A DNA stretch of 63,752 nt, filler included, from Collodictyon triciliatum (Eukaryota): NCBI GenBank assembly GCA_043381765.1. It is 4 parts of 4 records of this genome, joined end to end, with 100 filler letters (N's around TTAATTAATTAA, not from the genome) between each part and the next. Parts side by side here need not be neighbours in the genome. Positions count along the whole stretch, not along the records: positions 17,939 to 35,594 come from JBHJMP010001420.1; positions 35,695 to 61,631 come from JBHJMP010001423.1; 2 more parts are not named here. One strand, 5' to 3'. This document shows positions 21,101 to 55,100 of the stretch, one piece after another; the stretch's first letter is position 1, and every line of letters starts with the position of its first letter. The position numbers and the translations under genes are program-made. The notes below the pieces were generated by a model. It searched no databases. It was given only the letters and a program-made list of their open reading frames with translations, and was not told the origin of the DNA.

Positions 21101-24100
21101 GTTGGTTATGCTGTTATGTATTATAATAATACGTTATATACTACTTGAATTTATATTTTGATGCACTCCAAAAGAAAATAAAAATAAATTTGATACCCTA
21201 GAATCATAAAAAATGGCCTTTCTGACACTGAGTCTCAAATATTTCTTCGGTCGCTCATCGACGACCTTTTAAATATTATTTTGCATCCCGAATGGCCTGG
21301 TGTTGAATGTTTGAGCTAAATCCAAAAAATAGACATACTCGAAAACAACTGATACCATAATATTCTTCACTTTTTTCTTTCTTAAGCTGATCCCTTGATA
21401 CGTCATTAGTCCTGCTCCAAGCTATGTGTCATAAATTTGTTTCTACTCTGAACTCTCCTGAAAGTGATGATGCACACTCTAAAATGTCAAAGTCTATCGC
21501 GCTCGACTACCTTGGAATCATAGTGGCAGGTGACTTGGGCATTACCTTTCAGAACGAACAAAAAAAACTCATCCATATATATATATATTTATGAAGATAT
21601 CAGCTAATTGATCGATACTATCTCGCTTGTCGAATAGGCATACGAAAGATTCACTTGGGTATTTTAAATGAATTTCAAGTAAGTATATCATTTAAGAAAT
21701 AAACGAAGATGTATTTGTTAATTAAGTCTTAAAAATTCATTCACCAATTATAAAAAAAATTAAGAAAATTCCCGATGAAGCGAGGAAATTACCCGGCCCT
21801 CTAGAATCCTCCAAGGCTTTGCTATGTAAAAATACCGAAGCATCAAAATTCAACCTTCATAATGCAAAACATCCAACCGAATTGTAACCACACGTTTCTA
21901 CTCTTTTTTCAGCATTCATAGGGGCCAGAGCCGACAAATACCCATTCTTAGTATACGCAGTAACCATGCAGGCACACATTCACCAAATAGGTTATCTCTT
22001 GTTGATCATGAAAATAATACCGATTTAATACCTTACATACCGGAAGTCTCGCATCACATACTTACTAATTTGATACATGACCAACGACAGAACCAAAAGG
22101 AAGCATTGGCACAGTTATGGCGTATGTCTTATCACCTTCCTCGGATTATCTTCAAGACAATCCTACACAAAGATTTACTAAAAATCATACCTGTCCAGGG
22201 AAGATGGCACGGAGAAGCTGGATTACGAATTTATTTTGCGCCTGAATAAACGCTTCATAATCAAGGTAGAAATCTTCGTTTTTGGATGTCCAAACACCCC
22301 ATGCATAAACTAAACCAAACTGTAATTAGCGACCGTTGTTTTCGAACTTTGAGGTGTATTTTTCTGTCATTGGGACAAAGCTAAATCACCGATTGGTAAA
22401 CTGCCATATGATGAATGCTGTTGTCAGAAAAACAATCAAATTTTAATGCACCCTCCCTTGAATCGAATAAAGGGGAAAACAGCTTACAATTCGCCTAAAT
22501 TTCTTTTATTAATTACAGCTCAAACCCAAGGCCATGAAAGCAGTATCACTCATAGTAGAGTCAGACCCAACTATCCTTGGAGATGTGATTAGTTTAAACA
22601 ATTCATCTATTTTAGCCACAATATTTGTAATTCAGTGGACCAGAAACATCTCCACTTAATACGTCCATATTTGTGCAAAAGGAAAGCGTCCTCACAACCA
22701 TAATCGGCTACACGACAGATGAAAAAGTATCAGTGAGTGGGTTAATCTGAGAATTAATATTCATCAACATATATGTATGAACCTTGAAAGGTTATTATTT
22801 TTGAAAAAAGAAGGTAGGAATATAATGATTTTTCTTGGATATACCAATAATCTTTAAAAAATTGAATGAGTTTAACATTTGCAAGGTAAGAGAATATGCC
22901 ATGGAAATGATTGGTTCTTGTGTTATGAAACAACAAACATTGTTATCCAAATATGGGCACTCTTTGGTGGACAGAATGAAGGTATTTCACATCTTGACCA
23001 GAGAAAGCTCTCTTGTGTTCTATTTAACCGACTTCTTTTTCTCTTTCTCGTAGGATAAAAGTTTAAAAGTCCGAAAACACGCTATCACGCTTCTGACATC
23101 CAGTATATTCTTCATATCTAGACACATTCACTCATCATAACACACACATATTTTTTTTACACGAATTCAGTTTTCCTTATATTTCCACTCAAAAAAATAT
23201 AATCAAATCAAACATACTAGTATGTGTTGCGTCTGAAGACAGTGAAATAATTGAAAAAACTTGCACTAAACTGATTGAGCGACTCGAAGACCAAGATTTG
23301 TCCATTCGCGCCCTATCTGAAAATTCTCTTCAGACTATATTGCTTGGAAATGCATATGAAAAGTAATTACAAACACTCTCAAAAGTTGCGGGTGAAAGCC
23401 TGATTTTGTAAAATAATTCTTATGGTTTCATTTTTGATTTTATTTCATTTCAAACTAGGTTCCAGACCAACACAAATTGGAGCGTGGTAATTCCTAACAA
23501 GAACCAAAATTCAAACATGCAATTTAAACATTGATTTGGATGTCTAATATATTCATATCGGTCTTATAAGGTCATCAACAAGAAGGCATACCTTTTGATG
23601 CGATTTATGGGTCAAATTTCTGGAATCAAGAGTTCTTTCGAAGCAATTTTAAAGGTTTTCTTCTTATATAGGGTCTCTTACTTTTTCTTGATTTTTTTTT
23701 TGTGGGTACTCTTCATTTTTTTTCATACGCGATATCAATTTATCGGCATCTAAGGATCAACTTATATCAACAACTTACCAATCCAATATGCTAAGGTATG
23801 CAGCTCCCTACCGGACAGAATACAAATTGTAAGGTCGTCAGAGACACCCATCAGTCACACTTTGACAATATTTATCATGGTATTATTTCTTTATAATAGT
23901 ATTATTCCAAACCAATCAACTCTGTAAGAATTTTATTCAAAGTAATATCAAGCAAATTTATCAAAAATTGTCATTCTGATTTTAAACCAAACCAAACCAA
24001 ACCAATAAAAAGGAAATGAGCAAATCAATCATGGAAACGACATCTGCTGAATCGAAGAGGACAAGTGTAACACACGTGAGTAAATGCTGAAGTTAATATA

Positions 24101-53399: not shown

Positions 53400-55100
53400 T
53401 AGAGATATAAGGCGAGGTTTAATATCTTTCTCATCCCTTTTCCACATGTCTCTTCTCACAGGGTCTGAGTAGTAGAGAACGTGCAGGTGGCGAAGAAAGC
53501 TATTGAGGAAAGAGATTTGTATGATGTCATTCAGCCTATTATCNNNNNNNNNNNNNNNNNNNNNNNNNNNNNNNNNNNNNNNNNNNNNNNNNNNNNNNNN
53601 NNNNNNNNNNNNNNNNNNNNNNNNNNNNNNNNNNNNNNNNNNNNNNNNNNNNNNNNNNNNNNNNNNNNNNNNNNNNNNNNNNNNNNNNNNNNNNNNNNNN
53701 NNNNNNNNNNNNNNNNNNNNNNNNNNNNNNNNNNNNNNNNNNNNNNNNNNNNNNNNNNNNNNNNNNNNNNNNNNNNNNNNNNNNNNNNNNNNNNNNNNNN
53801 NNNNNNNNNNNNNNNNNNNNNNNNNNNNNNNNNNNNNNNNNNNNNNNNNNNNNNNNNNNNNNNNNNNNNNNNNNNNNNNNNNNNNNNNNNNNNNNNNNNN
53901 NNNNTAGTCCATAGCAAATGGCCTCGCGTCACTGCCCAGAATGTTTTTGCATCTGGACGCAGCTGTTGCAGAGGCCCAAATATCGCCTGGATTGGGCCAA
54001 CAGCCGCAGCCGTCTTGAGTGTCAGTCGAAGAATCTCACCAGCTGTTTCGCGCAGGTTTTGAGCGAAGGGACATTGCACAAATGTGTGCTCAATGGATTC
54101 ATCACCGTTGCTGCAATGTATGCATTGTTGGGAGACTTTGCCAGCTTTTGCCGCGCGTGTGCCTATCCATAGCTCCCTATTGTTGATATTAATCATTAGA
54201 GAGCGGTGATTTGGAAGGACTTGCGGGGTTCGTGCTTGTCTCCAGCTCGCGGTGAGCGGGGTGTGGGTGATGCCCAGTGTTTCTCCCCGCTGTTGATGTT
54301 TTGACTTTTTGTAGGGTGTCAGCGGCGATATTTTGTATCGAAAGAATTTGAAGTAGGCCATAGCCATCGAGAACTGCATAGACTGCGCACCGTTAGACGA
54401 GCGTTCGTTCTTTAGGCGGAAAAAGAATGGCGACGGGATGTCGTATGAGATTGGTCTGCATGAGTGCCATTTTCCTTTGTTATTCAGGTCGGCTGTGGTT
54501 GGCTGCGCATCTTGTGTGCGGAATGCGGTGGAGCCTGGCGTTGTGATGTACGAGCCGTCTTCTTTGAATGAGATTTCTCTGATGGTGGCCGCGTTGCCTT
54601 CGAGAATCTGTTTGATGATGCACAAGCCTTTCTGGTTGTCCCAGCATATTTGTCCTGCTGCCAATGGCTCGCTCAGGGGTATTGTCATGTCGCAGTGAGT
54701 ATACAGAATCTGCCAACGCGAGAGCAAATGCTCGGGTGTGTTTGGAGGTGGTAGTGGGATTGTTCTTTGTTGCAACTGTGTTTTGGAGTCTGCACACAGT
54801 TTGGTGATGAGTTTCCACATCCCAATTTTCCAAAACCCTTTCGGCTGCATGAACATGTCCGTCCACCACATCAAGGTCAGTGATTTTTTTCCTTTATTCG
54901 ATTCAAAGACTTCAAGGTCAGCGATATCCATGCATTTAAGGGTCGGGAGGTAGAAAGTGTCCATCAGACACAAGAACAGCCAATGAAACTCCATGGTGGG
55001 TGATAGAAAGATTAACCTCGCGCGAATGCAATCAGTAAGGAACAAGTTGAAATCAACACTGCGTTATCCAGAACGAAATTTCCCTGTCAAAAAAAGTGGT
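53400..55100 (-). mobile_element. L1/Tx1-like LINE fragment (ORF2 C-terminal region with zf-RVT), interrupted by a gap
   Basis: Intronless, GC-richer ORF containing CIHCSNGDESIEHTFVQCPFAQ (CX2C..HX4C) and ..GHLLWT. Its 3' side abuts a (TTATG)n tract. Confidence 0.75.
54871..54925 (-). mobile_element. Ultra-short retroposed element nested in the LINE, 14-bp TSD
   Basis: TCAAGGTCAGTGAT-[TTTTTTCCTTTATTCGATTCAAAGACT]-TCAAGGTCAGCGAT. Confidence 0.8.

Follow-up and report, generated by a model that had tools for sequence, protein, structure and literature searches.

Seven inserts of 23–47 nt, each carrying the same short terminal motif and an A-rich tail, are scattered through a stretch of 63,752 bases from the genome of Collodictyon triciliatum (assembly GCA_043381765.1). 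This stretch is here called the window, and all window counts refer to its whole length. The inserts are very probably the extreme 5′-truncated 3′ tips of an L1-like long interspersed nuclear element (LINE) with a poly(A) tail, produced where target-primed reverse transcription (TPRT) aborted after 17–30 nt. An earlier note on this DNA had described six of them as a family of “nano-SINEs”, ultra-short relatives of the short interspersed nuclear elements (SINEs) that would be mobilised as a discrete minimal RNA. The evidence set out below bears on both descriptions, and the coordinates of the features are collected in Table 1.

The motif is strongly over-represented in the window. With up to two mismatches allowed, TTTGAATCGAATRAAGG occurs eight times against a mean of 0.11 expected, a count that none of 100 dinucleotide shuffles reached; a 21-mer version occurs six times at up to three mismatches (0.03 expected), and the exact 10-mer TTGAATCGAA seven times (0.46 expected). 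Seven of the eight matches are isolated inserts of 23–47 nt with A-rich tails, while the eighth, at 17687(+), is the terminus of a 174-nt LINE tail and not a short insert. All six insert sites named in the earlier note were recovered by the scan, together with a seventh copy, 8638–8660(-), that lies beyond the range given there. Relaxing the threshold to four mismatches returned the eight known sites, one reverse-strand self-match generated by the near-palindromic motif, and one other site, so that this looser scan of the window yielded no further convincing copies. Exactly five mismatches are found at 13 sites, which brings the total at five or fewer to 23, compared with 9.4 on average, and never more than 15, in 20 mononucleotide shuffles.

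One further site lies close to a copy. The sequence tagAATAAAGGaaaag at 39660–39675(+) is the sole extra match to the last 8 nt of the LINE tail followed by an A run; it stands about 50 nt from the copy at 39723–39749, has no visible target-site duplication (TSD), and is probably a chance match.

The seven short inserts have a common layout, in which an upstream extension of 0–12 nt is followed by the 17-nt core, by up to three extra G residues, and by an A-rich tail that touches the downstream flank. The tail is present in every copy and ranges from 3 to about 29 nt in length. Flanking repeats were scored in a fixed geometry, the repeat ending no more than 16 nt upstream of the core and restarting no more than 6 nt from the end of the tail, with 4000 random non-repetitive window sites in identical geometry serving as the null. 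This procedure replaced a first flanking-repeat test, which was discarded because its null was inflated by the many microsatellites of the window. Five of the seven copies have TSDs of 12–17 bp, each with a score that was reached by at most one of the 4000 random sites. The duplication is perfect at 39723–39749 (17/17) and at 50247–50293 (12/12, alternatively 15/16). It is imperfect at 35055–35090 (15/16, the mismatch being a T/C transition), at 54885–54908 (15/17, with one G/A transition and one A/T transversion) and at 26533–26557 (13/16, three transitions). No random site reached the score of the first four, and a single one reached that of the last. The earlier description of five bracketed copies, two perfect and three imperfect, therefore stands with repeats of 12–17 bp, whereas its statement that the differences are all transitions fails on the A/T transversion at 54885–54908. 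The copy at 8638–8660 is borderline, its ungapped score being reached by 264 of the 4000 random sites. The copy at 22448–22479 has no adjoining TSD (its score was reached by 3601 of the 4000) and none within 1500 nt upstream. At the 5′ junction of the copy at 50247, the TSD ends in TGCA (50243–50246), four bases that also precede the junction in the LINE, a case of microhomology.

The tail of this last copy, which is the youngest-looking of the set, is unusual in itself. It forms an A-rich array with regularly interspersed G residues at 50265–50293, resolved by TRF into 3.3 copies of an 11-base period, and it looks like a LINE tail that is becoming a microsatellite.

The copy at 54885–54908 lies within an older LINE copy, and relatives of the older copy supply the unoccupied state. 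The LINE relatives P0010 (...AWTSLTMRWWTDM...) and P0007 (...AWVTMTLRWWTDM...) read uninterrupted across the site, with AW[T/V][S/T][L/M]T[M/L]RWWTDM as their common reading. The window has instead PLNAWISLTLK, the 24-nt insert, and then SLTLMWWTDM. Both copies of the TSD encode LINE peptide (ISLTLK and SLTLMW), and the 17-bp flanking repeat is LINE coding sequence that occurs once in the relatives and twice in the window. Such an arrangement is what an insertion with target duplication would predict, the empty site being one by paralogy only.

These comparisons also bear on whether the 17-mer might be a chance match or a functional motif, such as a regulatory or polyadenylation-type signal. 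It does contain AATAAA, and an A run follows 2–4 nt later. The count of eight matches against 0.11 expected, the duplication of target sequence on both sides, the match that splits a LINE reading frame and the position of the motif at the end of a LINE in the contig described next all speak against a signal of this kind. As both the TSDs and the empty-site comparison contradict it, this explanation has practically no chance of being correct.

The origin of the motif is indicated by a single metagenome contig. An exact scan of a metagenome collection with the 21-mer returned 15 loci, of which 14 are chance matches and one, L003, is a contig of 1157 bp whose minus strand reads as the 3′ end of a LINE. 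Its open reading frame (ORF) is 54% identical over 180 amino acids (aa) to the LINE fragment in the window (E 3e-70) and has a zf-RVT match (E 1.5e-07). Downstream of the end of ORF2 there is a 3′ untranslated region (UTR) of about 85 nt, then ...GCTACACTTTGAATCGAATAAAGG, then A10. The ORF2 C-terminus, the 3′ UTR, the motif and the poly(A) are joined on one contig, which makes the motif, as far as sequence can tell, the final ~20 nt of an autonomous LINE. The insert at 39721–39750 agrees with the final 30 nt of this LINE at every position (100% identity). A pattern scan of viral contigs gave no matches, and a scan of genome contigs gave 13, all in bacterial records and none aligning to L003 beyond the 20–29 nt around the motif.

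Longer tails of the same LINE are present in the window as well. Apart from the 174-nt tail at 17540–17713, there are two tails of a second subfamily, 17400–17545(-) and 10788–10955(+), which end in ACTTTGAATC[G/A]AAAGTGAA[A/G]GAAA. Among the short copies there are at least three tail variants: TTTG...AAAGG+A, CTTG...AAAGGGG+A and AATGAAGG. Of these, AATGAAGG is also found in the 174-nt tail; the AATGAA variant is common to that tail and the copy at 50247–50293. Upstream of the motif the short copies extend by 0, 1, 1, 1, 3, 12 and at least 9 nt, and the extensions are themselves LINE sequence. Both L003 and 17684–17686 match the CAC at 39749 and the C at 50247 and at 54908, and the 12-nt extension at 35079–35090 of the copy 35055–35090 is similar to what precedes the core at 22448–22456, including the CCCTCC of the copy 22448–22479. 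The non-tail sequence of the short inserts amounts to 17–29 nt, all of it LINE 3′ end.

The arrangement of two of the longer tails deserves separate description. At 17400–17713 tails of different subfamilies lie head to head with their A-rich ends outward, the arms showing 68% identity over 142 nt. Only about 5–8 nt separate their 5′ ends, which adjoin a 9-nt direct repeat, AAGAAATCA, and no TSD is apparent by eye around the pair. Two independent insertions so close together seem unlikely, and one event in which two cDNAs, primed at both ends of the target, were joined is possible.

The parent family is represented in the window by the older, 5′-truncated copy at 53421–54945, whose upstream limit is set by the PLNAWISLTLK match. 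Similarity to relatives in tblastn covers 54883–53906 and 53543–53421, and the copy is broken by an N run and by the short copy at 54885–54908. It has no 3′ UTR, motif or tail of its own; its last homologous codons are followed by a (TTATG)n array at 53349–53397 and then by unrelated sequence. The metagenome protein P0037 is 94% identical to it over 250 aa. A homologue search at near lengths gave two fragments, of 94% and 49% identity, and one for longer relatives of the fragment found none. An exhaustive HMMER search with the fragment gave 35 proteins at E ≤0.001, 10 of them at E ≤1e-10, and the strong ones are mostly short fragments; WD40 proteins at the weak end of this list are spurious, two having been checked. 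Among the proteins matched is P0011, of 1226 aa (E 4.2e-11), with Exo_endo_phos (E 2.1e-13) and RVT_1 (E 2.1e-36) domains and a sub-threshold zf-RVT match; among solved proteins it is matched best by human LINE-1 ORF2p (E 3.4e-57, residues 3–871). Because this relative has an APE endonuclease and a reverse transcriptase (RT) domain and finds its best solved match in human LINE-1 ORF2p, the family appears to be L1-like, the endonuclease and polymerase domains having been found only in this distant relative. No RVT_1 or Exo_endo_phos match was found in 150 of the 158 window ORFs of at least 80 aa. Of the eight left out, seven adjoin N runs at 61.3–62.5 kb and the eighth, 53534–55063(-), was scanned as 53905–55063.

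For the enzymology of insertion, and for the cause of the early stop, we infer the following course of events. The LINE endonuclease would nick the target, and the freed, T-ended 3′ OH would anneal to the poly(A) tail of the LINE RNA; in four of the five TSD-bearing copies a T stands immediately before the presumed nick of the primer strand. Reverse transcription would then stop at 17–30 nt, either as the enzyme falls off or as the template, perhaps degraded, comes to its end. The second strand would be cut 12–17 bp away, the short cDNA would be joined to the other end of the target, with the help of 4 nt of microhomology in at least one copy, and fill-in would yield the TSD. The resulting copies are dead on arrival: they are promoterless and unable to found a lineage, and each arose independently from a full-length LINE.

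A different route to very short inserts would be endonuclease-independent capture, in which short fragments of LINE cDNA or RNA are patched into double-strand breaks. Inserts of this size and junction microhomology such as the TGCA at 50243–50246 are known from such capture too, and the copy at 22448–22479, which lacks a TSD, would suit it. The TSDs of 12–17 bp in five of the seven copies, however, are not made by break repair. Every copy moreover keeps the exact 3′ end of the element and its A tail, and the tail lies against the downstream TSD as TPRT predicts. We consider break capture very improbable as the source of the set.

A closer rival is the nano-SINE itself, that is, a discrete RNA of about 20–30 nt, made up of the terminal hairpin and poly(A) and perhaps processed from the LINE transcript, that would be mobilised in trans by the LINE machinery. 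SINEs have a promoter-bearing head of their own and a fixed 5′ end. No such common end is found here, as the 5′ ends differ among the seven copies, though five lie within 3 nt of each other; the two other copies extend by 12 nt and by at least 9 nt. The 3′ tail that a SINE has in common with a partner LINE is present, the whole insert being LINE tail, and does not discriminate a SINE from LINE truncation. The inserts follow several LINE tail variants instead of one master sequence, and longer tails of the same variants occur in the window. They have no room for a pol III promoter and could not be transcribed alone. No tRNA-like gene (ARAGORN, 0) and no Rfam family (0 matches) was found in the window, and no tRNA, 7SL or 5S head.

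What speaks for a discrete unit is the shape of the length distribution and of the motif. Five of the seven 5′ ends lie 0–3 nt upstream of TTTGAATCG, none falls inside the motif, and copies of 30–125 nt are missing. The unit is also near-palindromic: CTTTG pairs with TAAAG, and the stem grows to CCCTT/AAGGG in the G-rich variant. The AAAG complement is kept in the second tail subfamily despite a 3-nt difference in length. The predicted hairpin is weak, however, with folding energies between -0.3 and -7.1 kcal/mol and z scores of about -1 or worse, no better than shuffles, and the copies number only seven. On balance a separately mobilised RNA is improbable. Of what the earlier note had put forward, retroposition by L1-type TPRT is borne out by the A-rich tails, the variable TSDs of 12–17 bp and the L1-like parent. 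Its family of nano-SINEs derived from a discrete minimal RNA is not upheld, given that the motif is the end of a LINE, that longer tails lie in the window, that tail variants and 5′ ends vary, and that 17–30 nt leave no room for a promoter. The note had named ordinary extreme 5′ truncation of a LINE, seen as a smooth, geometric distribution of 5′ ends, as one outcome that would overturn its proposal. Extreme truncation of a LINE is essentially what we find; the distribution in the window is clustered and not smoothly geometric, though with n=7.

That clustering is one of several observations that weigh against extreme 5′ truncation in the form given here. Five of the seven 5′ ends are no more than 3 nt from the first T of the core, and a search with the 8-nt suffix AAT[AG]AAGG and a tail, which could detect copies starting within the motif, finds the seven copies and one unrelated site. 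Tail copies of about 30–125 nt are missing from the window when it is searched with a profile built from the longer tails. The lengths accordingly fall into seven copies with 17–29 nt of LINE sequence and three with about 130–250 nt, as the nano-SINE proposal predicts, though n is small. A convincing TSD is absent from two of the seven short copies. On the side of the parent, the older copy lacks its 3′ end, so that ORF and motif are linked through L003 and the 174-nt tail. It is P0011 that supplies the APE and RT domains, and over the shared region this distant relative has 25% identity. A full-length LINE ending in this tail was not seen, the family in the window consisting of C-terminal fragments only, and no parent was found for the CTTG...GGGG tail variant.

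Within the truncation of an L1-like LINE, the clustered 5′ ends lead to a more specific proposal. Stops immediately 5′ of the terminal mini-hairpin may be favoured, which at n=7 is a lead. It is a rather unlikely extension that the commonest product of this LINE is a quasi-discrete, tail-only retrocopy, reverse transcription or template survival ending preferentially just 5′ of the CTTTG...TAAAG mini-hairpin. Two candidate causes are possible: only the hairpin and poly(A), protected in a ribonucleoprotein, may survive decay of the RNA, or the nascent cDNA may snap back and free the template. If this were so, copies of 17–20 nt would outnumber longer ones, at about one per 9 kb genome-wide, and they would evade standard repeat finders and seed A-rich microsatellites.

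The window also holds several genes and domain matches with no part in this argument, listed at the end of Table 1. Ten near-perfect (TAA)n/(ATA)n arrays, at ten sites from 6707 to 50803, each have about 32–39 repeats (95–117 bp), a uniformity that may come from a limit of the assembly and not from biology. Runs of 44 N occur in pairs, with 12 bases between the two, at 17839–17938, 35595–35694 and 61632–61731, where they adjoin A/C-rich simple repeats, and longer N runs occupy 53544–53904 and 58353–58814.

Table 1. Positions of the motif, of LINE-derived sequences and of other features in the window
Feature	Position	Strand	Remarks
TTTGAATCGAATRAAGG matches	8644-, 17687+, 22457+, 26540-, 35062-, 39730-, 50248+, 54891-		≤2 mismatches
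Ultra-short LINE tail copy, 23 nt, CTTGAATTGAATAAAGGGGG+A3	8638-8660	-	candidate TSD 8661-8676 / 8621-8637, imperfect, needs indel
Short LINE tail copy, ~32 nt, ...CACCCTCC-CTTGAATCGAATAAAGGGG+A4	22448-22479	+	5′ border uncertain
Ultra-short LINE tail copy, 25 nt, G+TTTGAATCGAATAAAGGGG+A5	26533-26557	-	TSD 26558-26573 / 26517-26532
Short LINE tail copy, 36 nt, 12-nt 5′ extension CGTAGCCCTTCC	35055-35090	-	TSD 35091-35106 / 35039-35054
Ultra-short LINE tail copy, 27 nt, CAC+TTTGAATCGAATAAAGG+A7	39723-39749	-	TSD 39750-39766 / 39706-39722
Ultra-short LINE tail copy, 47 nt, C+TTTGAATCGAATGAAGG + 29-nt A-rich tail with interspersed G	50247-50293	+	TSD 50235-50246 / 50294-50305
Ultra-short LINE tail copy, 24 nt, within older LINE copy	54885-54908	-	TSD 54909-54925 / 54868-54884
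3′ tail, 174 nt (ORF2 end + 3′ UTR + motif)	17540-17713	+	81% identity to L003 over 179 nt; nhmmer E 4e-50
3′ tail, ~145 nt, second subfamily, ends ACTTTGAATCGAAAGTGAAAG+A	17400-17545	-	head-to-head with 17540-17713
3′ tail, ~170-250 nt, second subfamily, ~80-nt internal deletion relative to L003	10788-10955	+	10788-10911: 75.8% over 124 nt to L003
Old 5′-truncated LINE copy, ORF2 C-terminal region	53421-54945	-	zf-RVT E 2.2e-07
Two-repeat Myb gene	6152-7367	-	
NHL-repeat ORF	8826-9962	+	
Weak SH2 match	11477-11932	-	
PP2C gene	36495-37103	+	
Multi-exon gene: CBM_20 starch-binding, then trehalose-6-phosphate synthase (Glyco_transf_20) and trehalose phosphatase domains	56083-60611	-	short introns

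The inserts share with 5′-truncated L1 insertions an exact element 3′ end, an A tail, variable TSDs of about 15 bp and microhomology at the 5′ junction, and the relative of their parent has an APE, an RT and a C-terminal zinc-binding region, with human L1 ORF2p as its best solved match. They depart from L1 in length, for seven of the ten tail-bearing copies in the window keep only 17–29 nt of the element, whereas mammalian L1 copies are typically about 1 kb and thus far longer. The family also differs from L1 in matching only unnamed metagenome proteins. For human L1 inserts, TSDs of 15 bp are mentioned in a passage of PMC4245944.

Elements of the RTE group offer a precedent for the confusion of tails with a separate family. 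As recounted in the section of PMC2887409 that cites Malik and Eickbush, truncated RTE elements flanked by TSDs pile up in large numbers from few full-length elements, and they were misclassified as SINEs until protein similarity to a LINE was seen. Here, too, short 3′-end fragments with TSDs mimic a separate family of short elements until the full LINE is known. RTE tails, according to the same section, are simple repeats and the TSDs are 6–12 bp, while the present inserts have poly(A), TSDs of 12–17 bp and much shorter fragments. Short human retropseudogenes provide a second parallel; in the account given in part of PMC2831318 they copy nothing but the 3′ end, have poly(A) and are flanked by TSDs of about 15 bp. 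[quoted passage not shown] Those copies reach up to 300 bp and derive from cellular mRNAs (PMC2831318), in contrast to inserts that are about 10 times shorter and derive from the LINE's own RNA. Platy-1, at about 100 bp, is called the shortest primate SINE in a passage of PMC4864456, and SINEs of this type resemble the inserts in being non-coding, A-tailed, flanked by TSDs and mobilised by LINE proteins. The inserts are 3–5 times shorter than Platy-1 as given there, and differ in lacking a promoter-bearing head and a fixed 5′ end. In the literature searched, no use of nanoSINE, nano-SINE or mini-SINE for a retroposon was found.

What appeared to be a new class of mobile elements of 20–30 nt would therefore be the shortest end of the normal truncation spectrum of a LINE, and such copies should be annotated as LINE tails. 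Their density is high, with seven tail-only copies in 64 kb against three longer tails, which would be of modest interest if it held genome-wide. In that case the density, together with the clustering of 5′ ends at the base of the mini-hairpin, would inform how early, and where, an L1-like RT or its template fails. Inserts as short as these are missed by repeat annotation, and they bring AATAAA signals and A-runs into genes and introns.

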